Assembly (NCBI GenBank): GCA_964016885.1
Contig: OZ024744.1
Location: 9,486,001 to 9,550,000, forward strand
Source of the DNA: Eledone cirrhosa
Lineage: Eukaryota
Reading direction: 5' to 3'
Length of the DNA: 64,000 bases
Positions within the stretch are counted from its first letter, which is position 1; every line of letters starts with the position of its first letter. Positions 14,349-57,700 of the stretch are shown here, one piece after another. Below the pieces are notes generated by a model. That model was given only the letters and a program-made list of their open reading frames with translations, ran no database searches and was not told the origin of the DNA. The position numbers and the translations under genes are program-made.

Positions 14349-14412
14349 CTTGATGAAGATGTTCGCGTGTTATTACAACGGTTTGATGCAGAAACTGCTG
14401 ATGATTCTGAAG
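14349..14412 (+). CDS. BRE1: BRE1 coding exon 3
   Basis: LDEDVRVLLQRFDAETADDSE; TTTTCAG acceptor, GTAAAT donor; 64 nt, phase 0 to 1. Confidence 0.92.
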
Positions 14413-14458
14413 GTAAATTATCTGTTTAAACCCTCAACATCTCTATAAAACTGTTTAA

Positions 14459-20745: not shown

Positions 20746-20756
20746 GTATGAGAATA

Positions 20757-29172: not shown

Positions 29173-29197
29173 TTAAATTAAATTGATATTATTACAG

Positions 29198-29493
29198 ATG
29201 CGACTTGTAGCAGCCGAGATGGTGTTGATAGAAAATCTGACTATTTAGACACGGTTGTGAAAAAGGAACCTGCTACATCAGAATCTGTTGATGATGGCAA
29301 CAATGTTAGTGATACAAATCATTGCAAGTTGCATTCAGACTCGGTCGATGTGAAGGTCGCTGTTGGATGTGCGACAACAACAAGCCTTGTTGATCTGCTG
29401 CAGATGGATCTCGCTGATGCACTGCAACAAAACAAACAGCTACATCAGTTGGTGACTCAATTACACCAGCAGCATCACGAGAACAGCCTAAAG
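29198..29493 (+). CDS. BRE1: BRE1 coding exon 5
   Basis: Open in the required phase (1 to 0); ...ALQQNKQLHQLVTQLHQQHHENSLK; TTACAG acceptor, GTTTGT donor. Confidence 0.85.
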
Positions 29494-31093: not shown

Positions 31094-31312
31094 GTATCTG
31101 AATTACAAGACAAAGTCACTGCTGCAGAGACTGGCAATGCTGAATTACGAAACAAAGTTGATGACTTGGAGTATGATTATGAAAAGGCTGATCAACGTGC
31201 CAGAAAATTAGACCGACGACTAGCTGACAGTCTGCAGAAGTTGCGGGGTTATGAAGAGGACCCAGTTGTACATGAAGGGGGCCGTACCATCTCTGGTGTT
31301 TCAAAGAATAAG
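31094..31312 (+). CDS. BRE1: BRE1 coding exon 6
   Basis: VSELQDKVTAAETGNAELRNKVDDLEYDYEKADQRARKLDRRLADSLQKL; CTTTAG acceptor, GTAAGG donor; 219 nt. Confidence 0.93.
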
Positions 31313-31461: not shown

Positions 31462-32510
31462 GTCTAGAATAAGGACGGGTTGGAAGAAGTTTAGGGAGCT
31501 GCTTCCTCTGCTGACAAAGAAGGGTTTCTCCCTACGAACGAAAGGCCGGTTATATGATGCTTGTGTGAGATGCGCGATGCTGCAAGGTAGTGAGACATAG
31601 GCAGCAATTGAGGAGGATATGCGACGGCTGGAGAGAAATGAGGCAAGCATGCTCCGTTGGATGTGCAATGTCAATGTGCTTGAATGACCGAGAGAAGAGA
31701 CTGAGGTGGTATGGACATGTGATGAGTTGAGAGAGAAACTGTGTCTGAGAGGGATAGAATATAGTGTGCGAGAGAGGAGACTGAGGTGGTATGGACATGT
31801 GATGAGTTGAGAGAGAAACTGTGTCTGAGAGGGATAGAATATAGTGTGCGAGAGAGGAGACTGAGGTGGTATGGACATGTGATGTGTTGAGAGAGAAACT
31901 GTGTCTGAGAGGGATAGAATATAGTGTGCGAGAGAGGAGACTGAGGTGGTATGGACATGTGATGAGTTGAGAGAGAAACTGTGTCTGAGAGGGATAGAAT
32001 ATAGTGTGCGAGAGAGGAGACTGAGGTGGTATGGACATGTGATGTGTTGAGAGAGAAACTGTGTCTGAGAGGGATAGAATGTAGTGTGCGAGAGAGGAGA
32101 CAGGTGGTATGGACATGTGATGTGTTGAGAGAGAAACTGTCTGAGAGGGATAGAATGTAGTGTGCGAGAGAGGAGACTGAGGTGGTATGGACATGTGATG
32201 AGTTGAGAGAGAAACTGTCTGAGAGGGATAGAATATAGTGTGCGAGAGAGGAGACTGAAGTGGTATGGACATGTGATGTGCATGAAGGATGACCGATGGG
32301 TGAAGAAGTGCCAGGAAATGCCAGTTGAAGGAAGACGTGGTAGAGGTAGACCACGAAAAACATGGGCGGAGGTGATGAGAACTGACCTCAGATCACTGAA
32401 GCTCACGGTGGAGATGACGAGTGGGGAGATGCTGTGCTGAATAAGACCTGTCCCACCCTTGCAAGCAGGGAAAAGCGGACGTAAAATGATGATGATGATG
32501 ATGATGATGT
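31462..32510 (+). mobile_element. RTE LINE 3' fragment containing an 80-bp tandem array (~7 units, 31690-32280)
   Basis: The unit derives from the ELREKL...RRLRWYGHVM coding segment. Confidence 0.9.
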
Positions 32511-33058: not shown

Positions 33059-33126
33059 ATTTTTAAAAGTTATCTTTTCTAAACTATGAAAGCAATTCCA
33101 GTGCTAACATGTTTCTTTCCTGACAG

Positions 33127-33266
33127 CTTGATGAGATCAGTACGGAATTGGAAGAACAACGGGAGTTTGCTAACACTCGACTTAGTGAATTGGAGACACT
33201 CAGCAAGGACCAACCTCCGCTACCACTCGACTTAGTGAATTGGAGACACTCAGCAAGGACCAACCT
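33127..33266 (+). pseudogene. Truncated duplicate of BRE1 exon 7 (copy 7a) with an internal ~50-bp duplication
   Basis: LDEISTELEEQREFANTRLSELETLSKDQ after GCTAAC...TTTCCTGACAG; the native donor is absent. Confidence 0.8.
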
Positions 33267-33648
33267 CTCCTCTTCTTCCTTTCATTGTGCTCAAATTAGT
33301 GGTGCCAGTCCTGAAGTTTGGAAGTTTACCATAATAGTCGGAGAGGGAAGATGAGTGTGGGTACTTGTGGAGGTGGTTGCTTGCTTTCTGCATCTGAAAT
33401 AAAGGTTTGCATGGTCGCTCAGGAACACGTGGATTCATATTCATATGTTGGGTTGTTCCATCATTGTAGTCCATCCATAATAAACAAAAATAAAGAATGA
33501 TAGTAGCACTAATAATTAATGTTTCGAATAGTGAGTCAAGGTATATATGTATTGCTGTGGTTTGGTTGGTCTGTGAGGGTAAAGTGGTGTGTGGGGCAGG
33601 TGAGAGGGAATGGAGAGATAGAATGAGGTAACTGAATTAGTTTCTTAA

Positions 33649-34861
33649 CCCTTTAGTGTTCAAACCGCCGAAATTATTTCCCCTTCATTTGTTCAAACTG
33701 CCCGAAATCGCCCGATAACACCCACACTAAAAAATCGTTAAAAAAATAAACAAACCATCATCAAAATATCGTCGATTCGAGACTACTGGGAGATTAGGCC
33801 CTTACCGCGAAAATTAACACTTAATATAGTGAAACAACTTAAAACAACAAGTGTTTTTTAACTTTGAAAGTTCAAATAATTTTTTATTTGTAACAACATG
33901 GCTTGTGAAGCGATACCGACTTTGAAGGTTTTACACACGACAACATTCAGAATGAACAAGAAACAAAAGATAATATTAGTGATTTATCTTCAAATGTTTA
34001 CATTTTTGAAATTTCGTCCGACGATGATTGTTTTGAAAGTGAAAACGAAGGAGATCTCCAGGGCGCCATTGAAAATATTACAGCAACATGGTTGAAAAAT
34101 ACCACACCAATATATGTTCCTGATTTTATTCAAAATACTGGTCCACAACACATTAGCTCCCGATGATAAAGCACTGGTTTATTTATTTTTATTTTTACCA
34201 CAAACTTTCTTCGAAGTTGTTGCAGAAAAGATTAATCGATATGCCCAACAACAGATTTCAAATCAAGGAAAACCCGATCTGTTTGACGACCGACAGATCC
34301 TGCGGAAATGCAAGCATTTTTTACCGTAAATATTATGTTCGGTATAAAACAATTTCCAAGACTGTCGAAATACTGGAACACTGATATAAGGTTTAGTGAT
34401 TCTTATATATCAAGTATTATGCCGAAAACAACGTATTTAAAATTAAACCAGTATTTGCACCTGGTTGATACTTCAAATGCCCCTATTAATTAATTTCACC
34501 TGCCCATAAAAGTCAAATTTGACCAAAAAATCAGGTAAAATTATATAATTGTAAATTATTGATATTTAAACATCTACTGACAAAATTTCAAGCCTGCACA
34601 TAGAAAATTAAGAAAATTACAAACAAATAAAATTGATAACCCTCTTGAGTATGATTAACTGAAAATAATTGTTTCTACTTTTGGCACAAGGCCAGTAATA
34701 ACCCAGTGTATTACTGGTACTTTATTTTATCCACCCCGTAAGGATGAAAGGCAAAGTTAACCTCGGCGGGATTTGAACTCAGAATGGCAAGGGCCGTAAC
34801 TCTATGCGTCAATGCGAACAGATAAGCATGACATTTGAAAATTAATGTGACTGCTAAAGGG
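33649..34861 (+). mobile_element. Defective piggyBac element (second copy)
   Basis: TTAA|CCCTTTAGTG...CTAAAGGG|TTAA; near-identical to 14459-15678. Confidence 0.9.
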
Positions 34862-35016
34862 TTAACTGAACTTATAACAGGATAAATAAAATGTCCGAAT
34901 AGGCTATGTTATAACATGGCGAAAAAATTTCAATGCTTGTAAATACGAATGATGGAGAACATAGTTTTTTAAATACTTGAATTCATTCCAGCGCTAACCT
35001 GTTTCTTTCCTGACAG

Positions 35017-35103
35017 TTTGATGAGATCAGTACGGAACTGGAAGAACAACGAGAGTTTGCTACCACTCGACTTAGTGAATTGGAGAATTGCCCTCTGAGA
35101 CAG
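35017..35103 (+). pseudogene. Truncated duplicate of BRE1 exon 7 (copy 7b); possible in-frame cassette exon
   Basis: FDEISTELEEQREFATTRLSELE+NCPLRQ; intact acceptor; CAG|GTCAGG at 87 nt keeps phase 0. Confidence 0.75.
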
Positions 35104-35274: not shown

Positions 35275-35770
35275 TCATCATAATCATTTCATTTTACGTG
35301 TGCTTTTCCTTGCTTGCAAGGGTGGGACGGGAACTGATTCTGGCTTGATTTCTACAGCTGGATGCCCTTCCTAAGACAAACATCATTTACAGTGAGGGCT
35401 GGGTGCTTTTTTGTTCCGTGGCGCCTACACGTCCACTTTACAGTGTGGGCTGGGTGCTTTTTTGTTCCGTGGCGCCTACACGTCCACTTTACAGTGTGGG
35501 CTGGGTGCTTTTTTGCCTTGGCACCTCCACGATCACTTTACAGTGTGGGCTGGGTGCTTTTTTGCTGTGACATCTCCACGACCACTTTGCAGTGGAATGA
35601 TAGGGACGCCAGTCCCTATCATCTCATTTCTACAGCTGAGTAAACTGGAGCAACGTGAAATAAAGAGTCTTGCTCAAGGAAACAACACATCACCCAGTCT
35701 GAGAATTGAACTCACAACCTTTCGATTGCAAGCCCAATGCTCTAACCACTAAGCCTTCATGTGCCTCCAT
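35275..35770 (-). mobile_element. tRNA-derived SINE, family B
   Basis: Reverse complement of the 9479 family. Confidence 0.85.
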
Positions 35771-36159
35771 CTACTGAGGAATTTTCTTTTGTTCAACTTT
35801 TTATGTTTGTTGTTTCTGTTCACTATTTTTACACAAAGAAGCCCACATTGTGCCAGCCAGTACTGACTTTAACCATTTAGCATTTACATTACTCTATATA
35901 TACTATTGTATTGTCACAGTAAAGGCTTTACCTCACATAACATTTACATTACTCTATATATACGATTGTATTGTCACAGTAAAGGCTTTACCTCACATAA
36001 TATCTAACATAACATTTACATTACTCTATATATACTATTGTATTTTCACAGTAAAGGCTTTACCTCACATAATATCTCACATAACATTTACATTACTCTA
36101 TATATACTATTGTATTTTCACAGTAAAGGCTTTACCTCACATAACATTTACATTACTCT

Positions 36160-37113
36160 CATCATCATCATCATCATCATCGTTTAACGTCCGTGTTCCA
36201 TGCTTGCATGGGTTTGGACGGGAGTTTTCCCACTTGAGGCAAGAGTGGTTGTCTTGCTCGCATAGGACTGTCTGGCGGGTTTTCTACAGTTGGATGCCCT
36301 TCCTAACACCAACCACATTTACAGTGTGGGGCTGGGAGGTTTTTACCGTGTTGCCTACACGGCCACATTACAGCGTGGACTGTCTGGCAGGTTTTCTACA
36401 GCTGGATGCCCGTCCTAACACCAACCACATTTACAGTGTGGGACTGGGAGGTTTTTACCGTGTTGCCTACACGGTCACATTACAGCGTGGACTGTGTGTT
36501 TTTTTGTCGTGACACCTACACGATCTCATTTGTTTCGGCCTGGATTTTGTGGCACCAACATAACTTTACATTGAAAGGGGTGGTGGGGTGGTGGGACGGG
36601 GGTGTATTTTGTTAGAGATGCCTACTGACTAGTAGGTTTTACTTTGTATTTAGGTAACGCGGGTCTTCTCTATTACTGAGTACCGCCAAAGGTCTCGGTC
36701 CAGAGACATTGTCTTGGAGAGGCGTAAGTGTGTGAGGTCGGAATTTATCAGCTCGTCCCAGGTTTTTCTGGGTCTGCCTACTCCGTGGCTACTGTCTATC
36801 TTTATTGCCCTGCACTTTGCTATACAGCTGTCGTCTTTCATGCGCATCACGTGACCATACCAACGTAGCCTTCTCTCGAATAAACAACATCTGATCCCTC
36901 TTATTTCTAATTTTTTCCTTAGTTCGTTTATGCTTTGCCGTTCGCGTATATTATTATTACACATCCAGCGGAGCATGCAAGCTTCGTTCCTCTCTAGTCT
37001 GCGTATATCCTCTGCACACAATGCCCAGCTCTCACTGCCATGCAACATTGCTGTTCGTATGCAGGCATCATACAACCTGCCTTTCATTTTTAGGGAGAAC
37101 CCTTTAGCGGATA
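36160..37113 (-). mobile_element. RTE 3' fragment nested in the minisatellite
   Basis: ORF 36650-37087; (CAT)n tail at 36160; flanked by TACTCT on both sides. Confidence 0.92.
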
Positions 37114-37558
37114 ATACTCTATATATACTATTGTATTTTCACAGTAAAAGTGTTACCTCACATAATATCTCACATAACATTTACATTACTCTATATATAC
37201 TGTTGTATTTTCACGGTAAAAGCTTTACCTCACATATTATCTCACATAACATTTACATTACTCTATATATACTATTTTATTTTCACGGTAAAGGCTTTAC
37301 CTCACATAATATCTCACATAACATTTACATTACTCTATATATACTATTGTATTTTCACAGTAAGGTCTTTACCTCACATCATATCCCACATAACATTTAC
37401 ATTACTCTATATATACTATTGTATTTTCACAGTAAAGGCTTTACCTCACATAATATCTCACATAACATTTACATTACTCTATATATACTATAGTATTGTC
37501 ACAGTAAAGGCTTTACCTCACATAATATCTCACATAACATTTACATTATTCTATATAT

Positions 37559-38921
37559 GCTCTGTTCTTAGCCCTCTTCTGTTCATCATAGTCCTGCAGG
37601 CAATAACAGAGGAGTTTAAGACCGGATGCCCATGGGAACTCCTGTATGCTGATGACTTCGCACTCATAGCTGAATCTATGGTAGAACTAGAGAATAAATT
37701 CCAAACTTGGAAGCAGGGACTAGAAAGAAAGGGTCTCAAAGTCAACATGACAAAGACTAAGGTCCTTGTAAGTAGACGAGAAAACAGAACCCAGATCCCC
37801 CCAGGGAAATGGCCTTGCTCAGTATGTAGGAAAGGTGTAGGTAGGAACTCCATTCTCTGCCCCAAATGCAAACAATGAGTACACAAGAGATGTAGCGGAA
37901 TCTCAGGAAGCTTAATTAAGAATGTAGGATTCACATGCAGCAGCTGTGCTGATGCAGCAAGCAGCAAACAGCCACAGGAAACAAGTACCACCAATCTCTG
38001 GGAGGGCCCTGTAGAAACAGTAGACAGCTTCTGCTACCTAGGTGACCGAATTAGCAACGGAGGTGGGTGTTCAGAAAGTACAATAACTAGGGTAAGAACG
38101 GGATGGAAGAAGTTTAGGTAACTACTACCACTGCTAGCTGCAAAAGGCTTCTCCCTCAGAATGAAAGACAGACTGTATGATGCGTGTATCCGAACAGCGA
38201 TGTTGCATGGTAGTGAGACCTGGGCGCTGAAGGTGGAAGACTTACGTAGATTAGAGAGAAACGAAGCCTGCATGCTCCGATGGATGTGTAACAGTAATAT
38301 ACGCGAACGACAAAGCATAAGTGAATTGAGAGAGAGACTGAGCATAAGAGGAATCAAATGCTGTGTGCAGGAGAGGCGGTTGCGCTGGTATGGACATGTG
38401 ATGCGTATGAAGGATGGCAGCTGCATAAAAAGGTGCAGAGCACTAGAAGTTGATGGAAACCGCGGAGTGGGGAGACCCAAGATGACCTGGGATGAGGTGA
38501 TAAAAGCCGACCTTACCCAACTACACCTCTCAAAGACAATGACACACGACCGTGACTTCTGGCGTCACGCAGTAATACAGAGTACCCGACCTCCCATGGG
38601 TACAAGCTGAAGCATATAGACAATATGCCCCCACACCCCCCACCTCAAGGTGGTCGTGGAGGTGCCACGGCAAAAAAGCACCCAGCTCACACTGTAAAGT
38701 GGACGTGTAGGCGCCACGAAAAAGCACCCAGCACTCACTGTAAATGAGGTTGGTGTTAGGAAGGGCATCCAGCTGTAGAAATCAAGCCAGATCAGTTCCT
38801 GTATGAGCAAGGCATGGTCAGCCGACCAGACACTGCCCACAACAGGACAGCCCGTCTAACCCATGCTAGCGTGGAAGAACGGACGTAAAACGGTGATGAT
38901 GATGATGATGATGATGATGAT
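37559..38921 (+). mobile_element. RTE 3' fragment nested in the minisatellite
   Basis: SVLSPLLF...LLYADD...RRLRWYGH; (GAT)n tail. Confidence 0.93.
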
Positions 38922-39820
38922 ACTATTGTATTTTCACAGTAAGGTCATTACCTAACATATCTCACATAACATTTACATTATTCTATATATACTATTGTAT
39001 TTTAACAGTAAAGGCTTTACCTCACATAATACCTCACATAACATTTACATTCTCTATATATACTATTGTATTTTAACAGTAAAGGCTTTACCTCACATAA
39101 TATCTCACATAACATTTACATTCTCTATATATACTATTGTATTTTAACAGTAAAGGCTTTACCTCACATAATACCTCACATAACATTTACATTACTCTAT
39201 ATATACTATTGTATTGTCACAGTAAAGGCTTTACCTCACATAATATCTCACATAACATTTACATTACTCTTTATATACTATTGTATTTTCACAGTAAAGG
39301 CTTTACCTCACATAATATCTCACATAACATTTACATTACTCTATATATACTATTGTATTTTAACAGTAAAGGCTTTACCTCACATAATATCTCACATAAC
39401 ATTTACATTACTCTATATATACTATTGTATTGTCACAGTAAAGGCTTTACCTCACATAATATCTCACATAACATTTACATTCTCTATATATACTATTGTA
39501 TTTTAACAGTAAAGGCTTTACCTCACATAATATCTCACATAACATTTACATTACTCTATATATACTATTGTATTTTAACAGTAAAGGCTTTACCTCACAT
39601 AGTACCTCACATAACATTTACATTACTCTATATATACTATTGTATTTTCACGGTAAAGACTTTACCTCACATAATATCTCACATAACATTTACATTACTC
39701 TATATATACTATTGTATTTTCACAGTAAAGACTTTACCTCACATAATATCTCACATAACATTTACATTACTCTATATATACTATTGTATTTTCACGGTAA
39801 AGGCTTTACCTCACATAATA
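38922..39820 (+). repeat. 72-bp minisatellite array
   Basis: Same unit as array A. Confidence 0.95.
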
Positions 39821-40377
39821 ATCCTGTGTATTTTAAAATCCCAGTATATCACTTATTACTGTTATAAGCTTTATTTAAAACCTTCTCCTCGCTTAATATT
39901 AATCTTGGCTGAAATTTTCCAGGATTCATAAAAGTGGCCTCCCTCGTCCCTCTAAATCTCTAACCCCCCCCCCCCCCCCTCTTTATCACATACGTGCCTG
40001 TTGGTCTCTCTCTCTCTCTCTCTCGATCACTCCCTACTCGCACCAAATATAAATAAACCTGTTACGAGGTACGAATTTCAGAATTTGTCAACTCTTATTA
40101 ATGGTCAGTCCACTTCTATGAAATGTAATGTAAAAATACCATTTTCTTCTTGTCTCGCCACCCTTCGGTTCATTCATCCATATATCTGTATCATCGCCCA
40201 GAATCCAATCCTGCTTTCTCAATGCTATTCTATAATTCTGTCTGGTTGTTCTGAATAATCCTGTGTATTTTAAAATCCCAGTATATCGCTTATTACTGTT
40301 ATATGCTTTATTTAAAACCTTCTCCTCGCTAACTACCCCATACCCCTTCCGTCCGCCCCACTCTCCACCATTATTTT

Positions 40378-42916
40378 TTGGAGCAATCACAAGTCAGCGG
40401 CCTATGCTATCACTTCTCCTGGTTGCTTTTCGATATGATGGATGGACTAAGGAATTCTGGAGAGTCTGAAGAATCTGGACACTCAGTGACAATGCCAAAG
40501 ATAACGACAAATTCACCTCATGCTGCTGGACGAAAAGGCAGGGACTCCTCCTCTTTGTTTCGGCCGCGAATGGCCAACATAACCCCAACCCCATCCCCCT
40601 CACCCCTCCCTGCGCCCCACCCACCAAACGCAATCCAAAACTTCAGAGTTGGTACCATGAATGTAGGCACCTTAAAAGGTCGCTCTAATGAGGTTGTAGA
40701 AATGCTTGAACGTAAGGAGGTTGATGTTTGTTGTATTCAAGAGACCAGGTGGAGGGGCGGGTCTGCTAGATTCATTGTAGGTAAAAAACGATGCTATAAG
40801 CTTTTCTGGGTGGGAAATGACAATGGGCTGGGTGGGGTAGGAATCATGGTAGCAGAAAAATGGGTGGATAAGATAATAGACGTAAATAGAGTGAACGACA
40901 GAATAATTAAAATAAGACTTGTCCTCAATAGAACTACTGTGACAATAATATCTGCATATGCACCACAATCCGGACTGCCTGGCACTATAAAAGACAGATT
41001 CTATGAGACACTGATGCTCACTACCTCCCAAATAACCGACAGTGACTATATAATTATTGCTGGCGACCTAAATGGTCACGTTGGACAACATTGTGATGGC
41101 TATGACGGAATCCATGGAGGCTATGGGTTTGGTACTAGAAATGAGGAAGGCTCCAGAATCCTGGAATTCTGTGACGCAAATAACCTAACTATCTGTAACA
41201 CTAACTTCAAAAAACGAGACAATCACTTGATCGCCTATAGATCAGGGGAACACACAAGCCAGGTAGATTATATCCTTACCAGAAGACGTGACAGAGTGTC
41301 TGTTGTAAACACTAAATCCCTCCCCCATGAAGAATGCACCTCTCAACATAGACTCATAATTAGCGACCTCATAGACGTACTCGACAACAGAAGACGACTA
41401 TCCTCAGGAGAAAAATATGGAAGCTAAAGGACCCCACAGCCAGTAATAAATTTAAAAGCATACTACTTGATGCTTTCGACAGTAAGGAAGAGCAATTAGA
41501 GTTGTACAATATAGAGGAACAGTGGGAATTCCTGAAAGCAAACCTGCTGAAGGCGACAGATGAAGTCTGTGGCTGGAGCAGACCTATAGGCAGGAGGAGA
41601 GTAATGTGGTGGTGGAACAGTAAGGTGGAGGAGTCAATTAAGGACAAAAAGCTGGCTTGGAAAGTATGGCGGGATGGGGGAAGTAGAGAAGACTATCAAG
41701 TGGCCAGGAGGGAAGCTAGGAGACAAGTGTACTTCGCAAGAAGGGAAGCAGAGGAAAGAAAGTTCAAGCATGTTCTACAACGCGATGACCAAAAACGTGA
41801 GGTGTTCAGGATTGCTAGGCAATGTGTCAAGGAAAACCGTGATATTGTCGGGGAGAAGTGTGTCCTTAATGATGATGGTGTACTTGTCATCACTGACGCT
41901 GATAAGAAGGTAGCTTGGAAGTGTCACTACGAAAGGCTACTAAATGAGGAGAATAAATGGGAGAAAGACAGTCTCCCCCACATCGATCCAATAGAGGGAC
42001 CAGCAGTGTTAGTCGAAGGTAGTATAATAAGTAAGGCAATCAAAGATACGAAGACGGGTAAGGCGGTTGGGCCTTCGGAAATAGTTGCTGAGATGCTGAA
42101 AGCTTCTGGAACGGTGGTACACACTATGGTCACCCGGATAGTAAACCAAGTTATACAGAATGGGGTTGTTCCGAAGGACTGGCGTAGCAGATCATCATTA
42201 GCTGCTACAAGGGTAAAGGAGATGCCCTAGATAGGGGTAACTATAGAGGCATTAAATTAATCGACCAGGTCATGAAGGTCACAGAAAAAGTAATAGCGCA
42301 ACTAATCAGAAAGTGGTGAATTGATCTAGATGAAATGCAGTTCGGGTTTGTGTCAGGTAAAAGTACAACAGACGCTCTTTTCATTGTACGACAACTACAG
42401 GAGAAGTACCTAACTAAAAGTAAACCCCTATACTTAGCTTTTGTCGACTTGGAGAAAGCCTTTGACAGAGTCCCCCGTTCCATTATCTGGTGGGCTCTTA
42501 GAAAACTAGGTGTTGATGAATGGCTTGTGAGAGCTATACAAGCCATGTATAAAGAAACAGTCAGTAAGGTTAGAATTAACAACGAATATAGTGAAGAGTT
42601 TAGTGTAAAAGTTGGTGTTCATCAGGGCTCTGTTCTTAGCCCCCTACTATTTATTATCGCCCTCCAGGCTATAACAGTGGAGTTCAAGACCGGCTGCCTA
42701 TGGGAACTCCTATACGCAGATGATCTAACGCTCATAGCTGAATCAATGGCTGAACTAGAGAAGAAATTCGAAACATGGAAGCATGGCCTAGAATCAAAAG
42801 GCCTTAAAATTAACCTGCCTAAGACTAAAGTTCTAGTTTGTAGGAAGGAAAATAGGGCACAGGTGCCCTCAGGGAAATGGCCATGCTCAGTGTGTAGGAA
42901 ATGAGTAGGCAGAAAC
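40378..42916 (+). mobile_element. 5' two-thirds of an RTE LINE (APE endonuclease plus RT); 3' end missing
   Basis: VGTMNVGTL...CCIQETRW, AGDLNGHVG, SQHRL; RT QGSVLSP, YADD; a few frameshifts and stops. Confidence 0.95.
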
Positions 42917-42920
42917 GGCA

Positions 42921-45900
42921 GACGGAATCCTCTCAGTAGGAGAAGTCACCACAGACGTTTTCGGCGGTTTGAGCGTGGAGGTTCTGGTGCAAATGAGACC
43001 AGAACGAATAGCGAGAATACCACAGAGGGTGTCGCTCGATGGAGAAACATTTATATACATTTCAGCCGAGGGTAGGAGGCCCATATGTTACTACTGTTCA
43101 AGCAGGGGTCATCTAAGGGCTGCCTGTGCTCAATTGACAAAAAAAAAAGGCTCTTTTGCCTACACCCCACACACCACCACCACCACCACCACAACAACAA
43201 CAACAAAAACAACACGGAAAAATAACACAAGACACGGTTCCACCCAAAACAACTCCAAAAGCACACAAACACAACAAAACCCCAAAATACACCACTACCC
43301 GACAGCACGGACGAGGACCCAGCTGAAACGGCACCTAGTGACGAAGAGGGGGAACCCTTCCAACCTGTAAAAAGAAAAAAAAGAAAACACCGCACGAACA
43401 TAAACGAAACAAACACACAACCACCAACAAAAACAAAACAAACAGAACAAACAAAATCCACCCCACCCCAAAACATAACACATACAACAAAACGCAAGCA
43501 CACACAAGAACAACAAACGAACACAACACAAATAAAACAGTATACATACATTAACACAAATAACAAAGAACTAGTAAAAACAATACACAAAAACCTTTCG
43601 GTGGAAACTGAAGGGCAATTCTTTGCAAGCGCGGCCAACAAACCGCATTTAAAAATGATAAGAATCCCAATGGACACCTATGCAAAACTAAGAGAGAACT
43701 TTCCTGAGGACGTGGGGAAAACATGTACTCAACCCTATAACCGCGTCCTCTTCAAACGTTTCCCCACCCACACCTCACCAAACACCCCCACCCCACCACA
43801 GAACAACACCCCACCAAACAACCCCTCCAATACGCCGATGGATATTGTGCAACCTGCTCCTCAGGAGCCGAACAGGTAGGTCCTTCCTCTTTTAACCAAC
43901 ATGGCTGATATAAGAGTTGGGTGTCTGAATGTACGTGGCCTGGGACTGTCTTGGAAACAAGGCAAACTTTTAAACAATCTCAGGTCGCATAGAATGGATG
44001 TAATGGCTATTTGCGAGTCCAGGATCAGCAGCAAGTGCCAACTGGCGCCCCTCTTCGACGACTTTGAGATCGTCGCATCTCTCTGTCAACCGGGGGGTGG
44101 GGGTGGAGTTGTCGTTCTGCTGCGAAAACACCTGGGCCTCGCCATACAGAAGGTGCACCTGGACCCGGAGGGTCGACTGGTGGTTTTAGACGTCGGCAGT
44201 AGTGAAAGTGGAGCCCTTAGACTAATTGCTGTGCCCCTTTTTGGGCAGCGCGGCCGGAATACTTCCAACGTCTGGAAACTTTTCTGGGAACGTCCCGCTC
44301 CTTGCTTTTAGTGGGGGACTGGAATGGTATCCTGGATGCACGTTGGGACTATGTAGGGGCATGCGCCAATAGAGGGGGTGTAAAAGCCTCAAAAGGTTAA
44401 TCGGCCGATTTGACCTGGCCGATAGATATCGACTAGATTTTCCGACTGTACCACTATGGACGTGGACCAATCGCAGCGGAACATCCAGGTCTTACCTAGA
44501 TAGGGTACTAGTTAGAGAGAAGGCTAGGGACACATTTAGCTGTCCAAAATTGTTCATGGTTGACTATTCAGATCACAAGTTAGTGACCTGCATAGCCAAC
44601 CCTGATCGAACCCATAGCCAGGGACCCGGTTACTGGAAGCTGAACTTGTCCTTACCGACAAGCAAAGCTTACAGTAAACGGATTAGCACGTTAGTTAAGC
44701 AGAGTTTGACGGGCAATTGTCAACAACAGGTGGTGGAGCTCTCTTAAGAGAGCAATTAGAATAGAATCGATAGGTTTTAGTCAGGAATTAGCAAGGGATA
44801 GGAACAAGACGGAAAGGGAATTAGTAGATAGAGTAGAAGAGGCGATTAGGAGTGGCAATGTAGCCGGCGTGCTGGCATCAAGAATGGCCTTAGACCAGTT
44901 CTTTGAGGTGAAGCATGAAGGCTGCGTTGTCAGGAGTAAAATACGTGCTCTGGGTAATGAGGGAGCCAAAGCTGTTAGTTGGTCCCGAGTGACAGGCAAA
45001 AAGTGGGAACAAGTCCACGATTCGGTCTTTGAAGGACCAGGATGGGCGTGTGATCCTTGAACCTGGGCAGATGTGTGCGGCCTTTCAGCGGCACGTTGCA
45101 CGACTGTTCGGGAGGGGCGGCGCTCCGGGTGAGACTATGGATTTCAATCCATACCTCGACGGTCTGCCGCGCCTCTCGGACGCGGAGGCGAAGTCCTGCG
45201 AAAGGCCGATTTCAGCTGCTGAGATAGGGGCGGCGCTGAGCCAATGCGGCAAACGCAAATCCCCGGGTCTCGATTGTCTACCATACGAGCTATATGTAGA
45301 GATGCCGGACTTGTTCTCCGATATCCTCGAAGCGGTCTACTGCAACTGGCAGCAGAACGGGAGAATTCCCAGTTCTGTGACCAAGGGCGTAGTTACGCTG
45401 GTGAGGAAGGATGAGAACAAGGGGGATGACATAAGTAACTTCAGGCCCATAACTCTGCTAAATACAGAGTTAAAGATTTTGGCCAAGGTGTTAGCGAAGA
45501 GGTTGGCGCTTGTCGTCGGAAACCTGGTGGGAGAAGTGCAGACATGCACAATCCCATCCAGGTCCATTCACGACAATCTCCACCTTATGCGATACATCAT
45601 AGAGAGGGTAGGGAATGAACCCGGCTTTGGTGGGGTCCTGATCAACTTGGATCAATCTAAAGCTTTCGATAGGGTTGACCATCGTTACCTGGATGCCGTG
45701 CTCGCGGCGGCAGGCTTCGGACCCGTTTTCAGGGGTTGGATTGCTGCGATGCACAGCAGCAACGTCGGGTCAAGGTGAACGGCCACCTCTCGGAGCCGTT
45801 CCAAATCATGCGATCCATCCGATAGGGATGCCCTCTCTCCTCCCTTCTGTATGTGCTGGCTCTTGAGCCACTACTGCGGAAGTTGGAGCGGTTGCAGGGC

Positions 45901-47553
45901 ATCTTTGGAACCGGGATTGCAGAAAGCGGCGTCGGCCTACGCCGATGACGTGACAGTAATGGTGTCGAAAACCTCGCAAATCGGTGAGATCGGTACCTTA
46001 CTGGAGGAATATGAAAGGTTTACAGGAGCCAAGCTGAACCGGGACAAGTCCGTCGGTTTGCAACTCGGAACATGGAGAGGCAAACCGATGCCCTCCAATG
46101 ACGTCATCGGACGCTGGACGGAGGGCCCGGTGAAGCTGCTTGGGGTCTGGTTCGGACCAGACCTCCAGGTGGAGAAAAACTGGAACGAGGTACCGCCCAG
46201 GGTGTTTGCACTCACCCAGAAGTGGGCCCAGTGCAAACTATCCCTGAAAGGTCGAGCGGAGGTGGCGAATACTTATATAGCATCCGTCATCTACTACCGC
46301 TTGACCGTCATGCCTTGCCCAGTGAAAAGACTCGCCAAAATGGAGTGCGCGCTGTTCCAATTTCTTTGGAACAAGCGGACCCCTTTGGTGAGGAGATCCA
46401 TCTGCTGTCAACACCCTTCGAAAGGAGGGCTGGGGATGCCGTGGCTACAGATGCGTAAACACGCATTAAGGCTACGGCACCTCCAGGTATTCCTCACCGG
46501 TCAACCGGTGTGGGCCCCGTTTGTGAGGCGAGCCTTTCCCAGACTCGTCTCGCTCACCGAGCTGCAATCCTGGGTCAAGCAAAGACCGAGAAAAGTGGGC
46601 GACTGGCACATTGAATGTGCCCAGGCGCTCACGGCCCTCTGGAAAGCGGACCCGGCAATCAGTGGAGACTCCACCTCGACATTCTATAGAGGGTTGGTAC
46701 GCAGCAGGTGCGACGATGCTCTCGGGGAAGCTCTAGGCATGGAGGAAGATGAACTGGCCAGTCTGTTCGGTAGGACGTTTGGCCCTGGACCGATGGACAA
46801 CTTCCAAAAGTCCCTGGCTTGGCAGTGCTACCGAGGGGCTCTACCCGTTCGAGACAAGCTCCACAGGCATGGGAGCCTGGGTAGAGATCCTTTGAATAAG
46901 ATCTGTCCGAGATGCGTGCATGACGACGAAACCGTTGCGCATGCATTCGTACACTGCCCAGGCATTGCTGACCTGTGGGGCTATGTGGAACGACTACTGT
47001 CGAGGGTGGGACCAATCCGGTTGACCACCGAGTCCATTGTAACGATCAAACCGCCTCCCCCTTTCAAAAACGAAGGAGAGGCGGTTTTTCTCTGTGTGAT
47101 AGCCATGGCTAAAGAAGTTGTATGGTGGACGAGGCTGAAAGGGCTGAGGTCAGACACCTTTCTCTCCGGCCAACAACTGATCGCCTTTTTCAAATAGCAT
47201 TTTAAAAGAAGGATCAGAATGGAGAGAGGTGTTCTACCCCAGCAAGTTTTATGAAAGGTGGGTGAAAGTAGGGAGAATGCCAGAGTGAATGGGTCTTCTC
47301 TCTATATCAGCCTGTAGGTGAAAGAAGAGGAAAAAGAGGAGACGAGGGAAGCACCTACTCTTTGTGCTCCTGAGGAGAAGGGTTACACATTTTTTCGGGG
47401 TGTGTGCGACCCATGTTAATGCTCCCTCCCTATTGAGGACTTCGTTTGTTGTTGTTATTTCATTGTTATATTTTTGTACTCGTTAATTATATGTAAACTT
47501 CCCCCCTTGTATCTGTCCCTACCTTTTGTGCCCTAGTGGCAAATAAAGAAATC
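42921..47553 (+). mobile_element. 5'-truncated Tx1/L1-clade LINE, second copy
   Basis: Near-identical to the reverse complement of 21757-26386; intact YADD; ends AATAAAGAAATC. Confidence 0.95.
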
Positions 47554-49337
47554 ACTTTATATATACTATTGTATTTTCACAGTAATGTCTTTACCTCACA
47601 TAATATCTCACATAACATTTACATTACTCTATATATACTATTGTATTTTCACAGTAAAGGTTTTACCTCACATAATATCTCACATAACATTTACATTACT
47701 CTATATATACTATTGTATTTTCACAGTAAAGGCTTTACCTCACATAATATCTCACATAACATTTACATTACTCTATATATACTATTGTATTTTCACAGTA
47801 AAGGTTTTACCTCACATAATATCTCACATAATATTTACATTACTCTATATATACTATTGTATTTTCACAGTAAAGGCTTTACCTCACATAATATCTCACA
47901 TAACATTTACATTACTCTATATATACTATTGTATTTTCACAGTAAAGGTTTTACCTCACATAATATCTCACATAACATTTACATTACTCTATATATACTA
48001 TTGTATTTTCACAGTAAAGGCTTTACCTCACATAATATCTCACATAACATTTACATTACTCTATATATACTATTGTATTTTCACAGTAAAGGTTTTACCT
48101 CACATATCTCACATAACATTTACATTACTCTATATATACTATTGTATTTTCACAGTAAAGGTTTTACCTCACATAATATCTCGTATAACATTTACATTAC
48201 TCTTTATATACTATTGTATTTTCACAGTAAAGGCTTTACCTCACATAACATATACATTACTCTATATATACTATTGTATTTTCACAGTAAAGGTTTTACC
48301 TCACATATCTCACATAACATTTACATTACTCTATATATACTATTGTATTTTCACAGTAAAGGCTTTACCTCACAATATCTCACATAACATTTACATTACT
48401 CTATATATACTATTGTATTTTCACAGTAAAGGCTTTACCTCACAATATCTCACATAACATTTACATTACTCTATATATACTATTGTATTTTCACAGTAAA
48501 GGCTTTACCTCATATAATATTTACATTACTCTATATATACTATTGTATTGTCACAGTAAAGTCTTTACCTCACATAATATCTCACATAACATTTACATTA
48601 CTCTATATATACTATTGTATTTTCACAGTAAAGGCTTTACCTCACATAATATCTCGCATAACATTTACATTACTCTATATAAACTATTGTATTGTCACAG
48701 TAAAGGCTTTACCTCACATAACATTTACATTACTCTATATATACTATTGTATTTTCACAGTAAAGGCTTTACCTCACATAATATCTCACATAACATTTAC
48801 ATTACTCTATATATACTATTGTATTGTCACAGTAAAGTCTTTACCTCACATAATACCTCACATAACATTTACATTACTCTAAATATACTATTGTATTGTC
48901 ACAGTAAAGTCTTTACCTCACATAATACCTCACATAACATTTACATTACTCTATATATACTATTGTATTTTCACAGTAAAGGCTTTACCTCACATAACAT
49001 TTACATTACTCTATATATACTATCGTATTTTCACAGTAAAGGCTTTACCTCACATAACATTTACATTACTCTATATATACTATTGTATTGTCACAGTAAA
49101 GTCTTTATATCACATAATACCTCACATAACATTTACATTACTCTATATAAACTATTGTATTTTCACAGTTAAGGCTTAACCTCACAGAACATTTACATTA
49201 CTCTATATATACTATTGTATTTTCACAGTTAAGGCTTTACCTCACATAATATCTCACATAACATTTACATTACTCTATATATACTATTGTATTTTCACAG
49301 TTAAGGCTTTACCTCACATAATATCTCACATAATATC
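47554..49337 (+). repeat. 72-bp minisatellite array (~25 units)
   Basis: Same unit as array A. Confidence 0.97.
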
Positions 49338-49475
49338 GAATCTATGAGTATTTATTTTGAGAACAATACTATAACATCAGTATAAGCGACCAGTTACAGC
49401 CAGTTTCGCCAGAAAGAGGTAGAGAATTCTGACCGGTTTGAACATTAAAAGGTTAATGTTTTCTTTATTTGACAG

Positions 49476-49601
49476 TTTGATGAGATCAGTACGGAACTGG
49501 AAGAACAACGAGAGTTTGCTACCACTCGACTTAGTGAATTGGAGAAACTCAGCAAGGACCACCACGAGGCACTGAAGGAAATTGAACAACTTAGGATGGA
49601 T
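49476..49601 (+). CDS. BRE1: BRE1 coding exon 7 (complete copy)
   Basis: FDEISTELEEQREFATTRLSELEKLSKDHHEALKEIEQLRMD resembles the RNF20/40 'LEEnkELA..RL.ELEKL' region; GACAG acceptor, GTAAGT donor; 126 nt. Confidence 0.93.
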
Positions 49602-49854
49602 GTAAGTATAATTGTTTCTATGTTTGGTACAAGGCCAGCAATAACCCAGTACATTACTGGTACTTTATTTTGGAAGTATTAATAATGGTGGAGGTAGTCA
49701 TCATGACCATCAGGCAGCCTCAGTCGACTCGGCAATTGATCCCTTTGTGGGCCTGTCATTCATTGCTGTTGCCAAAATCCTGGATTTCAATCCCAGAATC
49801 TCTGGAGATGACATCGGAGTAGGAGACCTTGCGCCCCCTGTTATTAGTAACACT

Positions 49855-51170
49855 AATGGTGACACAGCCTCAGAGGTGACCTGGTGGCAGTGGCCAGCAA
49901 ATCTTACCTTCCTTTTACAGACAACAACAGATATGGGTCGGAGGCTGGCATATCTCTCTCTCAATGGTGACACAGCCTCAGAGGTGACCCGGTGTCAGTC
50001 AACAGCAAATCTTACCCTCCTTTTACAGACAACAACAGATATGGGTCGGAGGCTGGCATATCTCTCTCTCAATGGTGACACAGCCTCAGAGGTGACCTGG
50101 TGTCAGTCAACAGCAAATCTTACCCTCCTTTTACAGACAACAACAGATATGGGTCGGAGGCTGGCATATCTCTCTCTCAATGGTGACACAGCCTCAGAGG
50201 TGACCCGGTGGCAGTGGCCAGCAAATCTTACCCTCCTTTTACAGACAACAACAGATATGGGTCGGAGGCTGGCATATCTCTCTCTCAATGGTGACACAGC
50301 CTCAGAGGTGACCTGGTGGCAGTGGCCAGCAAATCTTACCCTCCTTTTACAGACAACAACAGATATGGGTCGGAGGCTGGCATATCGCTCTCTCAATGGT
50401 GACACAGCCTCAGAGGTGACCCGGTGGCAGTGGCCAGCAAATCTTACCCTCCTTTTACAGACAACAACAGATATGGGTCGGAGGCTGGCATATCTCTCTC
50501 TCAATGGTGACACAGCCTCAGAGGTGACCTGGTGGCAGTGGCCAGCAAATCTTACCCTCCTTTTACAGACAACAACAGATATGGGTCGGAGGCTGGCATA
50601 TCTCTCTCTCAATGGTGACACAGCCTCAGAGGTGACCCGGTGGCAGTGGCCAGCAAATCTTACCCTCCTTTTACAGACAACAACAGATATGGGTCGGAGG
50701 CTGGCATATCTCTCTCTCAATGGTGACACAGCCTCAGAGGTGACCTGGTGGCAGTGGCCAGCAAATCTTACCCTCCTTTTACAGACAACAACAGATATGG
50801 GTCGGAGGCTGGCATATCTCTCTCTCAATGGTGACACAGCCTCAGAGGTGACCTGGTGGCAGTGGCCAGCAAATCTTACCCTCCTTTTACAGACAACAAC
50901 AGATATGGGTCGGAGGCTGGCATATCTCTCTCTCAATGGTAACACAGCCTCAGAGGTGACCCGGTGTCAGTCGCCAGCAAATCTTACCCTCCTTTTACAG
51001 ACAACAACAGATATGGGTCGGAGGCTGGCATATCTCTCTCTCAATGGTGACACAGCCTCAGAGGTGACCCGGTGGCAGTGGCCAGCAAATCTTACCCTCC
51101 TTTTACAGACAACAACAGATATGGCTTGGAGGCTGGCATATCTCTCTCTCAATGGTGACACAGCCTCAGA
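49855..51170. repeat. 108-bp tandem array (~12 units) amplified from within a minus-strand RTE-like LINE 3' fragment (49700-51215)
   Basis: The unit encodes RRVRFAGHC; the flanks continue the LINE (HLDGTYTRLL; AMNDR). Confidence 0.92.
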
Positions 51171-51767: not shown

Positions 51768-54700
51768 CACCCTTTCTCCTACACTACACCACACCACCAC
51801 CCTTCCTCCTACACCACACCACAACCCTTCCTCCTACACTACACCACACCACCACCCTTCCTCCTGCACTACACCACACCACCACCCTTCCTCCTACACT
51901 ACACCACACCACCACCCTTCCTCCTGCACTACACCACACCACCACTTTCCTCCTACACTACACTACACCACACCACCACCCTTCCTCCTACACCACACCA
52001 CAACCCTTCCTCCTACACTACACCACACCACCACCCTTCCTCCTACACTACACCACACCACCACCCTTCCTCCTGCACTACACCACACCACCACCCTTCC
52101 TCCTACACTACACCACACCACCACTTTCCTCCTACACTACACCACACCACCACCCTTCCTCCTACACTACACCACACCACCACCCTTCCTCCTACACTAC
52201 ACCACACCACCACCCTTCCTCCTACACTACACCACACCACCACCTTCCTCCTACACTACACCACACCACCACCCTTCCTCCTACACTACACCACACCACC
52301 ACCCTTCCTCCTACACTACACCACACCACCACCCTTCCTCCTACACTACACCACACCACCACCCTTCCTCCTACACTACACCACACCACCACCTTCCTCC
52401 TACACTACACCACACCACCACCCTTCCGCCTATACTACACCACACCACTACCCTTCCTCCTACACTACACCACACCACCACCCTTCCTCCTACACTACAC
52501 CACACCACCACCCTTCCTCCTACACTACACCACACCACCACCCTTCCTCCTACACTACACCACACCACCACCCTTCCTCCTACACTACACCACACCACCA
52601 CCCTTCCTCCTATACTACACCACACCACCACCCTTCCTCCTGCACTACACCACACCACCACCCTTCCTCCTACACTACACCACACCACCACCCTTCCTCC
52701 TACACCACACCACCACCCTCCTGCACTACACCACACCACTACCACCCTCCTGCACTACACCACACCACCACCCTTCCTCCTACACTACACCACACCACTA
52801 CCACCCTCCTGCACTACACCACACCACCACCCTTCCTCCTATACTACACCACACCACCACCCTTCCTCCTGCACTACACCACACCACCACCCTTCCTCCT
52901 ACACTACACCACACCACCACCCTTCCTCCTACACCACACCACCACCCTCCTGCACTACACCACACCACTACCACCCTCCTGCACTACACCACACCACCAC
53001 CCTTCCTCCTACACTACACCACACCACTACCACCCTCCTGCACTACACCACACCACCACCCTTCCGCCTATACTACACCACACCACAACCCTTCCTCCTA
53101 CACTACACCACACCACCACCCTTCCTCCTACACTACACCACACCACCACCCTTCCTCCTGCACTACACCACACCACCACCCTTCCTCCTACACTACACCA
53201 CACCACCACCCTTCCTCCTGCACTACACCACACCACCACCCTTCCTCCTACACTACACCACCACCCTTCCTCCTGCACTACACCACACCACCACCCTTCC
53301 TCCTACACTACACCACACCACCACCCTTCCTCCTACACTACACCACACCACCACCCTTCCTCCTATACTACACCACACCACCACCCTTCCTCCTGCACTA
53401 CACCACACCACCACCCTCCTGCACTACACCACACCACCACCCTTCCTCCTACACTACACCACCACCCTTCCTCCTGCACTACACCACACCACTACCCTTC
53501 CTCCTACACTACACCACACCACCACCTTCCTCCTACACTACACCACACCACCACCCTTCCTCCTACACTACACCACACCACCACCCTTCCTCCTATACTA
53601 CACCACACCACTACCCTTCCTCCTACACTACACCACACCACCACCCTTCCTCCTACACTACACCACCACCCTCCTGCACTACACCACACCACTACCACCC
53701 TCCTGCACTACACCACACCACCACTCTTCCTCCTACACTACACCACACCACCACCCTTCCTCCTACACTACACCACACCACCACCCTTCCTCCTATACTA
53801 CACCACACCACTACCCTTCCTCCTACACTACACCACACCACCACCCTTCCTCCTACACTACACCACACCACCACCCTTCCTCCTACACCACATCACACCA
53901 CCACCCTTCCTCCTACACTACACCACACCACCACCTTCCTCCTACACCACACCACCACCCTTCCTCCTGCACTACACCACACCACCACCCTTCCTCCTAC
54001 ACCACACCACCACCCTTCCTCCTACACCACACCACACCACCACCCTTCCTCCTATACTACACCACACCACTACCCTTCCTCCTACACTACACCACACCAC
54101 CACCCTTCCTCCTACACCACACCACACCACTACCCTTCCTCCTACACTACACCACACCACTACCCTTCCTCCTACACTACACCACACCACCACCCTTCCT
54201 CCTACACTACACCACACCACCACCCTTCCTCCTACACCACACCACCAGGCTTCCTCCTACACTACACCACACCACCACCCTTCCTCCTACACCACACCAC
54301 ACCACCACCACCCTCCTACACTACACCACACCACTACCCTTCCTCCTACACTACACCACACCACCACCCTTCCTCCTACACTACACCACACCACCACCCT
54401 TCCACCTACACTACACCACACCACCACCACCCTCCTGCACTACACCACACCACCACCCTTCCTCCTACACTACACCACACCACCACCCTTCCTCCTACAC
54501 TACACCACACCACCACCCTCCTACACTACACCACACCACCACCCTTCCTCCTACACTACACCACACCACCACCCTTCCTCCTACACTACACCACACCACC
54601 ACCCTTCCTCCTACACTACACCACACCACCACCCTTCCTCCTACACCACACCACACCACCACCCTTCCTCCTACACTACACCACACCACCACCCTTCCTC

Positions 54701-57700
54701 CTACACTACACCACACCACCACCCTTCCTCCTACACTACACCACACCACCACCCTTCCTCCTACACTACACCACACCACCACCCTTCCTCCTACACTACA
54801 CCACACCACCACCCTTCCTCCTACACTACACCACACCACCACCCTTCCTCCTACACTACACCACACCACCACCACCCTCCTGCACTACACCACACCACCA
54901 CCCTTCCTCCTACACTACACCACACCACCACCCTTCCTCCTACACTACACCACACCACCACCCTCCTACACTACACCACACCACCACCCTTCCTCCTACA
55001 CTACACCACACCACCACCCTTCCTCCTACACTACACCACACCACCACCCTCCTACACTACACCACACCACCACCCTTCCTCCTACACTACACCACACCAC
55101 CACCCTTCCTCCTACACTACACCACACCACCACCCTTCCACCTACACTACACCACACCACCACCCTTCCTCCTACACTACACCACACCACCACCCTTCCT
55201 CCTACACTACACCACACCACCACCCTCCTACACTAAACCACACCACCACCCTTCCTCCTACACTACACCACACCACCACCCTCCTACACTACACCACACC
55301 ACCACCCTTCCTCCTACACTACACCACACCACCCTTCCTCCTACACTACACCACACCACCACCCTCCTACACTACACCACACCACCACCCTTCCTCCTAC
55401 ACTACACCACACCACCACCTTCCTACTACACTACACCACACCACCACCCTTCCTCCTACACTACACCACACCACCACCCTTCCTCCTACACTACACCACA
55501 CCACCACCCTTCCTCCTACACTACACCACACCACCACCACCCTCCTGCACTACACCACACCACCACCCTTCCTCCTACACTACACCACACCACCACCTTC
55601 CTCCTACACTACACCACACCACCACCCTTCCTCCTACACTACACCACCCACCACACCACCACCCTTCCTCCTACACTACACCACACCACCACCCTTCCTC
55701 CTACACTACACCACACCACCACCCTCCTACACTACACCACACCACCACCCTTCCTCCTACACTACACCACACCACTACCACCCTCCTACACTACACCACA
55801 CCACCACCCTTCCTCCTACACTACACCACACCACTACCACCCTCCTACACTACACCACACCACCACCCTTCCTCCTACACTACACCACACCACTACCACC
55901 CTCCTACACTACACCACACCACCACCTTCCTCCTACACTACACCACACCACCACCCTTCCTCCTACACTACACCACACCACCACACCACCACCCTTCCTC
56001 CTACACTACACCACACCACCACCCTTCCTCCTACACTACACCACACCACCACCCTCCTACACTACACCACACCACCACCCTTCCTCCTACACTACACCAC
56101 ACCACTACCACCCTCCTACACTACACCACACCACCACCCTTCCTCCTACACTACACCACACCACCACCCTTCCTCCTACACTACACCACACCACTACCAC
56201 CCTCCTACACTACACCACACCACCACCATCCTCCTACACTACACCACACCACCACCCTTCCTCCTACACTACACCACACCACCACCCTTCCTCCTACACT
56301 ACACCACACCACCACCCTTCCTCCTACACTACACCACACCACCACCCTCCTACACTACACCACACCACCACACCACCACCCTTCCTCCTACACTACACCA
56401 CACCACCACCCTTCCTCCTACACCACACCACACCACCACTCTTCCTCCTACACTACACCACACCACCACCTTCCTCCTACACTACACCACACCACCACCC
56501 TTCCTCCTACACCACACCACACCACCACTCTTCCTCCTACACTACACCACACCACCACCCTTCCTCCTACACCACACCACCACCCTTCCTCCTACACTAC
56601 ACCACACCACCACCCTTCCTCCTACACCACACCACACCACCACCCTTCCTCCTACACTACACCACACCACCACCCTTCCTCCTACACTACACCACACCAC
56701 CACCCTTCCTCCTATACTACACCACACCACCACCCTTCCTCCTACACTACACCACACCACCACCCTTCCTCCTACACTACACCACACCACCACCCTTCCT
56801 CCTACACCACACCACACCACCACTCTTCCTCCTACACTACACCACACCACCACCCTTCCTCCTACACTACACCACACCACCACCCTTCCTCCTACACCAC
56901 ACCACACCACCACCCTTCCTCCTACACTACACCACACCACCACCCTTCCTCCTACACCACACCACACCACCACCCTTCCTCCTACACTACACCACACCAC
57001 CACCCTTCCTCCTACACTACACCACACCACCACCCTTCCTCCTATACTACACCACACCACCACCCTTCCTCCTACACTACACCACACCACCACCCTTCCT
57101 CCTATACTACACCACACCACCACCCTTCCTCCTACACTACACCACACCACCACCCTTCCTCCTACACTACACCACACCACCACCCTTCCTCCTACACCAC
57201 ACCACACCACCACTCTTCCTCCTACACTACACCACACCACCACCCTTCCTCCTACACTACACCACACCACCACCCTTCCTCCTACACCACACCACACCAC
57301 CACCCTTCCTCCTACACTACACCACACCACCACCCTTCCTCCTACACCACACCACACCACCACTCTTCCTCCTACACTACACCACACCACCACCTTCTTC
57401 CTACACTACACCACACCACCACCCTTCCACCTACACTACACCACACCACCACCCTTCCTCCTACACTACACCACACCACCACCCTTCCTCCTACACTACA
57501 CCACACCACCAGGCTTCCTCCTGCACTACACCACACCACCTTTCCTCCTACACTACACCACACCACCACGCTTCCTCCTACACTACACCACACCACCACC
57601 CTTCCTCCTACACTACACCACACCACCACCTTCCTCCTACACTACACCACACCACCAGGCTTCCTCCTGCACTACACCACACCACCACCCTTCCTCCTAC

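Follow-up and report, generated by a model that had tools for sequence, protein, structure and literature searches.

A TTAA-bounded piggyBac-type element with an expanded internal repeat, likely targeted by a Tx1-like LINE, in a BRE1 intron of Eledone cirrhosa

In Xenopus, Tx1D elements carry internal tandem repeats, and the insertion of Tx1L, a long interspersed nuclear element (LINE), generates a 23-bp target duplication. This pair is described as a non-autonomous piggyBac element in which a Tx1-type LINE occupies one fixed position (PMC4494074, PMC1950540). In crocodilians, the Tx1 families Tx1-Mar and Tx1-9_AMi are reported to favour as their target a non-autonomous DNA transposon that is old and abundant (PMC4494074). 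Tandem growth within small transposons is documented as well: in Xmix, a TTAA-flanked miniature inverted-repeat transposable element (MITE), an internal segment has been amplified into the Xstir tandem repeat, with MITE, array and composite forms coexisting (PMC6004289, PMC12628747), and miDNA4 of Xenopus is a MITE with either one monomer or an array, the long arrays losing their terminal segments (PMC12628747). A 2026 annotation of the Octopus vulgaris genome reports recently active piggyBac and L1-Tx1 families, the portion of its text consulted containing no such pairing of LINE and carrier (PMC13282606). Here, we describe a locus in Eledone cirrhosa in which a tandem array, carried by a TTAA-bounded element in an intron of a BRE1-like gene, is likely targeted by a Tx1-like LINE. 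The stretch analysed, called the window below, comprises 64,000 nucleotides of contig OZ024744.1 (assembly GCA_964016885.1, positions 9,486,001 to 9,550,000), and all coordinates are those of the window.

The interval 35873-49452 is one TTAA-bounded non-autonomous element with piggyBac-type ends and without a transposase. It is preceded by a TTAA at 35869-35872, likely one copy of the target-site duplication according to the sequence and the terminus scan described below. Its 8-bp head, CCATTTAG (35873-35880, plus strand), resembles the right end of the piggyBac-like copies in the window and leads directly into the first 72-bp unit. Behind the last unit, about 120 bp of far end (49334-49452, plus strand), homologous to the left end of the same copies and part of a high-copy family in public sequencing runs, extend to the closing TTAA (49453-49456), 19 nucleotides upstream of a BRE1 exon. 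Between the two ends lie four segments of 72/60-bp units, C1 (35881-36159), C2 (37115-37558), C3 (38918-39820) and C4 (47554-49333), all on the plus strand, and four LINE pieces, three of RTE type and one from the L1 group that is Tx1-like; the parts of the 13,580-bp carrier include 3,406 bp of array and 10,047 bp of inserts.

The assignment of the ends relies on a scan of the whole window, on both strands, for TTAA followed by the 8-mer terminus of the piggyBac-like copy at 14459, with two mismatches or fewer. The scan returned eight sites, every one at an element end; seven of them have at most one mismatch (one by construction), compared with approximately 0.17 expected for 500 site-strands, and none lies in the interior of 35873-49452. 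For the far end, the left end of the 33649 copy gives an alignment over 107 nucleotides whose score none of 500 shuffles reached, and the left end of the 14459 copy one whose score three of 500 reached. The head aligns more weakly with the right ends of the 33649 and 14459 copies (four and five of 500 shuffles reach the score); its similarity to the 18318 copy is not significant (29 of 500). Each kind of end is therefore present once in the carrier, oriented as expected. Both ends fit the piggyBac terminal motif C[C/A/T][C/A/T][T/G/A][T/A/G][T/G/A] (PMC5381638), and eight of their first 12 bases agree with each other. Identity as a Kolobok or T2-MITE element was rejected: Kolobok elements also use TTAA, but their termini are purines (AG/RR; PMC6004289), whereas those of the carrier begin with CC.

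The copies that share these ends are 1.2-kb piggyBac deletion derivatives with TTAA on both sides, located at 14455-15682 (14459-15678 without the TTAA) and 33645-34865 (33649-34861 without it), both on the plus strand and 90.7% identical. Each retains only about 200 frameshifted N-terminal codons of a piggyBac-type transposase, corresponding to positions 34-97 of the 349 in PF13843; two full-length relatives of the derivatives carry PF13843 and PF13842. For each of the six longer transposase relatives tested, similarity to the window ends at residue 165-214, with nothing past residue 214 at any other place, short of residue 268, the first catalytic aspartate of the reference piggyBac enzyme (PMC5381638). 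Neither a catalytic core nor an intact transposase with a DDD core was found in the window; the search for a close full-length partner yielded at best 65% identity over 65 residues. A third piggyBac derivative at 18318-18754 is reversed, further deleted and interrupted by an RTE tail. The flanks of the 14455 derivative (14425-14454 and 15679-15705) share some 25 bp of similar sequence, which gives the impression of a short duplication around it.

Public sequencing runs place the carrier in a large family. Four of the 18 listed runs (X16, X1, X4 and X6) were aligned, to positions 49262-49700 only, and coverage of the unit and of the far end is deep in three organisms (A, B and C). The depth drops at the right TTAA in all four: between 49442-49456 and 49457-49471 it falls from 741 to 34 raw reads in X16, from 43,785 to 395 in X1, from 331 to 7 in X4 and from 16 to 0 in X6, where contig depths are sums rather than copy numbers and X16 is a reduced-representation run, apparently anchored at the EcoRI site of the far end (49424-49429; 537 read ends at 49428). 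For these reasons the statement that single-unit copies dominate was withdrawn. The tandem joint between unit end and unit start occurs in all four runs (28, 25 and 3 contigs; 173 reads), and in all four, reads pass from the unit into the far end and also back to the unit start. What is shown is a single oriented element made up of head, unit and far end, and a high-copy family in which the far end terminates at the TTAA. Octopus genomes are probably rich in short elements that are bounded by TTAA and end in this way. The far end in the window departs from the family majority at a minimum of seven positions and lacks 10 letters present in many reads; at 49450, 718 of 741 X16 reads have G, which would give a CCC terminus. 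The changed third base of the window copy is drift, not proof of death, and the proposal that its CCT terminus marks a dead copy is weakened by the functional piggyBac elements with non-CCC termini described in PMC5381638.

Two further arrays of the same unit are present in the window. The second carrier (20751-29176, minus strand) consists of a TTAA (29173-29176), the head CACTTTAG, an array (29164-27353), a Tx1-like LINE and a second stretch of array (21756-20751). The third (13067-14313, plus strand) has a decayed head, CCATTTAC, with no TTAA, followed by 17 units with no LINE among them. All three arrays begin at unit position 1 behind an 8-mer that differs from the piggyBac-like terminus by one, one and two mismatches. 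The unit is the segment lying between head and far end, and read forms with and without an array coexist. Across 105 unit cores, divergence from the reference unit is 1.3-4.7% per segment; the unit thus appears to stay alike from array to array as the ends decay. A 26-bp motif of the unit had no match in a metagenome scan. The first-pass annotation of this DNA had proposed that the arrays start at degenerate piggyBac termini, at 35869 and in reverse at 29176, that the last array closes at a TTAA and that four LINE pieces lie inside; all of this is borne out. The decayed terminus it placed near 13066 exists, at 13067, with two mismatches and without its TTAA. The expectation that arrays are bounded by these ends and by TTAA holds in the window for all three heads, for two of the three TTAAs, and for one far end. 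The likeness to the ends of the 14459 and 33649 copies was correctly recognised, their description as transposase-bearing was not.

The L1-group LINE is present in two copies, both within arrays. Copy B (21757-27352, minus strand), in the second carrier, is apparently full-length, and copy C (42917-47553, plus strand) is 5'-truncated; they are 96.4% identical, with 101 differing positions and 16 gaps over 4.7 kb. The element carries endonuclease, reverse transcriptase and zf-RVT domains (PF03372, PF00078 and PF13966), its closest solved relative is human L1 ORF2p (E 5e-34), and a 912-residue relative is 74% identical. In its second open reading frame (ORF2) it has the features of the Tx1 clade, namely an APE endonuclease, a reverse transcriptase and a C-terminal zinc motif in an L1-group context. 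A CCHC knuckle in ORF1 is likewise a feature of that clade; here the zf-CCHC match is weak (E 0.008, below the cut-off), with atlas scores of 0.90-0.92 to CCHC and ZCCHC3-type clusters. No relative named Tx1 is found among the 120 matches listed or in eight clusters. Judged from these features, the LINE is likely Tx1-like.

Both copies have the same orientation relative to the unit, and in both the 3' end meets the unit at the same base, position 11. The identical junction favours a target preference, and the LINE likely recognises one site in the repeat unit. ORF2 has three frameshifts and two stops in copy B and six frameshifts and two stops in copy C; none of the 13 lesions is common to both, a pattern that speaks for two insertions by an intact lineage. 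The 5' end of copy B (27341-27352) opens with a 12-bp palindrome, similar as well to a variant form of the unit end.

The RTE pieces behave differently. The first, a 3' fragment with a CAT tail (36160-37114, minus strand), is flanked by a 6-bp duplication of unit positions 10-15, which marks it as an insertion into a pre-existing array. The second, a 3' fragment with a TGA tail (37559-38917, plus strand), has no clear duplication (overlap of two nucleotides or less), and the third (39821-42916, plus strand) is the 5' part of an RTE-like LINE, with endonuclease and reverse transcriptase, cut on its 3' side; the best named match of its endonuclease, at 61%, is from Octopus bimaculoides. Together they account for more than half of the LINE DNA in the carrier. 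RTE-like tails occur at arrays in two of 14 cases, counted after dropping matches that ended before query position 45, while arrays occupy 14.5% of positions 1-51767. The frequency in arrays is thus no higher than chance, and targeting of arrays by RTE was rejected. A 510-bp piece at 39821-40330, ahead of the recognisable RTE sequence, begins and ends with a direct repeat of 73-77 bp, matches nothing else in the window apart from 23 bp, and is possibly the 5' end of that RTE. The sequence CCCTTTAG just before segment C2 is part of an RTE piece and has no TTAA. Elsewhere in the window, RTE-like fragments and fragments resembling short interspersed nuclear elements form local tandem repeats (31689-32278, 16166-16631, 35386-35594 and 36265-36495, with periods of 80, 132/156, 51 and 112 bp); pieces of mobile elements have thus often been amplified in tandem in this region.

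Taken together, we consider it probable, with considerable room for doubt, that a TTAA-bounded piggyBac-type MITE entered the BRE1 intron, that its first 72 bp became tandemly repeated, and that three RTE pieces and one Tx1-like LINE were inserted afterwards in place, the latter by recognition of a site in the unit. In this model a short form of about 200 bp would have been moved by a transposase encoded elsewhere and inserted at a TTAA in the intron. Slippage or unequal exchange would then have expanded the unit and kept it uniform across arrays while the ends decayed. The RTE pieces would have fallen into the arrays by chance, no more often than chance predicts for the window, and the Tx1-like endonuclease would nick next to unit position 11 and prime reverse transcription there. 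The swollen copy would no longer move, and its two sister carriers would have lost their far ends by deletion. The order of events, the targeting and the immobility are our inference.

A number of observations weigh against this model. The fixed insertion site is seen in two of two copies, both in this window and 20 kb apart, and the Tx1 membership of the LINE is putative. Copy B removed 7 bp of the unit and produced no target duplication; target truncation is reported for Tx1-related insertions (PMC4494074). The variant 46C>T is present in the arrays downstream of both copies (4 of 14 and 6 of 26 units) and in none of 26 units upstream of copy B, a distribution that fits shared ancestry. A far end is found in one array of three, missing from those that start at 13067 and 29172. 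Because functional non-CCC copies exist, the changed third base does not prove immobility, and the depth figures carry the restrictions given with them. An empty site with a single TTAA was not seen in the four of 18 runs that were aligned to the locus; exon contigs of organisms B and C, with 19 differences each, carry 137 and 58 further letters outside the alignment to the element, and between sequences that far apart introns may not align. The same intron contains two partial duplicates of the downstream exon, from which the left flank draws weak support for a single insertion: its 12 nucleotides next to the first TTAA agree at nine and eight of 12 positions with those preceding the pyrimidine tract in the duplicates (null 0.00035 and 0.002), but the register was picked after inspection, and the duplicates have no TTAA at that place; an unanchored local test is not significant (0.23 and 0.81), and global alignment favours the left flank for one duplicate of the two.

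The most serious alternative, unlikely but with a real chance of being correct, holds that the LINE is not target-specific. The LINE would have landed by chance in one array, and gene conversion or break repair would at an early stage have copied it to the second array, which is inverted; the copying would have ended prematurely, with fusion to the RTE piece. This would account for the identical 3' junctions of copies 20 kb apart, for the sharing of 46C>T, and for the structure of copy C, whose truncated 5' end adjoins an RTE that lacks its 3' part, with a short motif repeated at the junction (42916). With no ORF2 lesion in common, however, the copying would have to have followed soon after the insertion; each downstream array has variants of its own (52C>A in 5 of 14 units, 45G>T in 5 of 26), and many Tx1-clade families are reported to have target preferences (PMC4494074).

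A second alternative, distinctly unlikely in our view, questions the unity of the carrier: head and far end would derive from different copies of an abundant MITE, brought together by recombination or by the spread of the array, through conversion, into old copies. The great abundance of the family, the missing far ends, the deletion at the RTE/Tx1 junction, heads more decayed than units and segments that differ in their variants are compatible with such a history. Against it, the four array segments share one direction and the ends that enclose them are correctly paired, C1 and C2 are linked by the 6-bp duplication, and the flanks resemble, weakly, a continuous pre-acceptor sequence.

That the 13.6 kb form a composite transposon that moves, or has moved, as a unit with the LINE as cargo is very unlikely. 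Both termini and both TTAAs are present and fit the terminal motif of the superfamily, but the far end has drifted from the family, the window contains no transposase core and no second copy of the same content, and the three carriers hold different contents (no LINE, one LINE and four pieces), which leaves no indication of joint movement of the 13.6 kb. The first-pass annotation had suggested one DNA transposon within a three-part system of transposase, minisatellite carrier and targeted LINE. What stands is a TTAA-bounded, piggyBac-type non-autonomous element with the array as internal cargo, together with a reasonable analogy to Tx1D/Tx1L for the L1-group LINE; movement as a unit, a transposase source in the window and RTE as targeted cargo are not supported. 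An assembly artefact, with arrays from different places stitched together, might be suspected from the long, near-identical arrays and from several 1-2-bp indels in the LINEs that could be read errors, but is barely credible given six host exons in order, in frame and free of stops, and contig 7 of run X1, which crosses the right TTAA into the exon, albeit covering just 24 letters of the element where the bar is 31.

The model of a MITE expanded and invaded in place can be extended to a genome-wide conjecture that we think unlikely to hold as a whole. In octopods, a three-tier stack would link piggyBac, a MITE-borne 72-bp repeat and a Tx1 lineage specialised on that repeat; LINE nicks would drive the growth and homogenisation of arrays, multiplying landing sites and inflating introns such as those of BRE1 up to their splice signals.

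Of the host gene, the 5' part lies in the window. Exon 12745-12912 matches human BRE1B (E 7e-16), and the six exons (12745-12912, 14349-14412, 20416-20745, 29198-29493, 31094-31312 and 49476-49601) all have AG/GT borders, consistent phases and no stops, the last, on the plus strand, being in frame with the five upstream. Two truncated duplicates of this last exon (33095-33270 and 34985-35087), with intact acceptors, flank the piggyBac derivative at 33645-34865 and, in their intron part, are more alike each other than the functional copy. Judged by the consensus and usual zone of branch points, the TTAAs at 29173-29176 and 49453-49456, 21 and 19 nucleotides upstream of an exon, lie where a branch point is usually found, and the TTAA with its following T at 49453 could itself keep one. 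A copy-specific A at 49432, where the family majority has G, creates a CTGAC motif, and an AG at 49450-49451 lies between this motif and the acceptor. The array of the second carrier comes within five nucleotides of exon 20416-20745, and the donor behind this exon (GTATGAG; 20746-20765) reads on the minus strand like a unit end, the unit at 21550 ending identically; this donor may be array-derived. The next intron contains a 12-kb array of a 30-bp CA-rich unit (51768-64000) and 12 copies of a 108-bp unit (49855-51170), and long inverted duplications upstream of BRE1 (4560-4870, 400-720 and 5070-5290) were seen by eye.

The carriers show one way in which introns swell in the BRE1 gene here, since they fill 87%, 99.6% and 75% of three introns. 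If the targeting holds, specialisation of a Tx1-type LINE on the internal repeat of a non-autonomous piggyBac element is not confined to frogs. One could then test whether the pairing was inherited or arose by convergence, and a new site-specific endonuclease would be available whose 72-bp target is known. The combined system was not found in the literature searched, Repbase and Dfam lying outside it.

In comparison with the described systems, the LINE resembles Tx1D/Tx1L as a putative fixed-site Tx1-type element in a non-autonomous piggyBac element, here with two copies only; the frog pair belongs to another phylum, and the loss of 7 bp without a target duplication and the unrelated RTE pieces that dominate the inserts set the locus apart. 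The crocodilian Tx1-Mar and Tx1-9_AMi differ in that they target Mariner and Harbinger elements rather than a tandemly amplified piggyBac segment. As in Xmix/Xstir, the unit is an internal MITE segment, and array and non-array forms coexist; Xmix, however, ends in AGGRR and is presumed to be a Kolobok element, whereas the C-C-N-T-T-T ends here are tied to a PF13843 remnant, and for Xstir no targeted LINE is mentioned in the relevant portions of PMC6004289 and PMC12628747. The loss of terminal segments from long arrays, seen in two of the three carriers, is shared with miDNA4, which is of Tc1/mariner type and is described as having captured a pre-existing repeat, whereas the unit here begins directly behind the terminus. 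By analogy, the array works like Xmix/Xstir or miDNA4 and the LINE likely like Tx1D/Tx1L or Tx1-Mar, membership in these families not being implied. Each ingredient is known already, and the locus combines them as a MITE-borne minisatellite of the Xmix/Xstir type that is likely targeted by a Tx1-like LINE in the manner of Tx1D/Tx1L.

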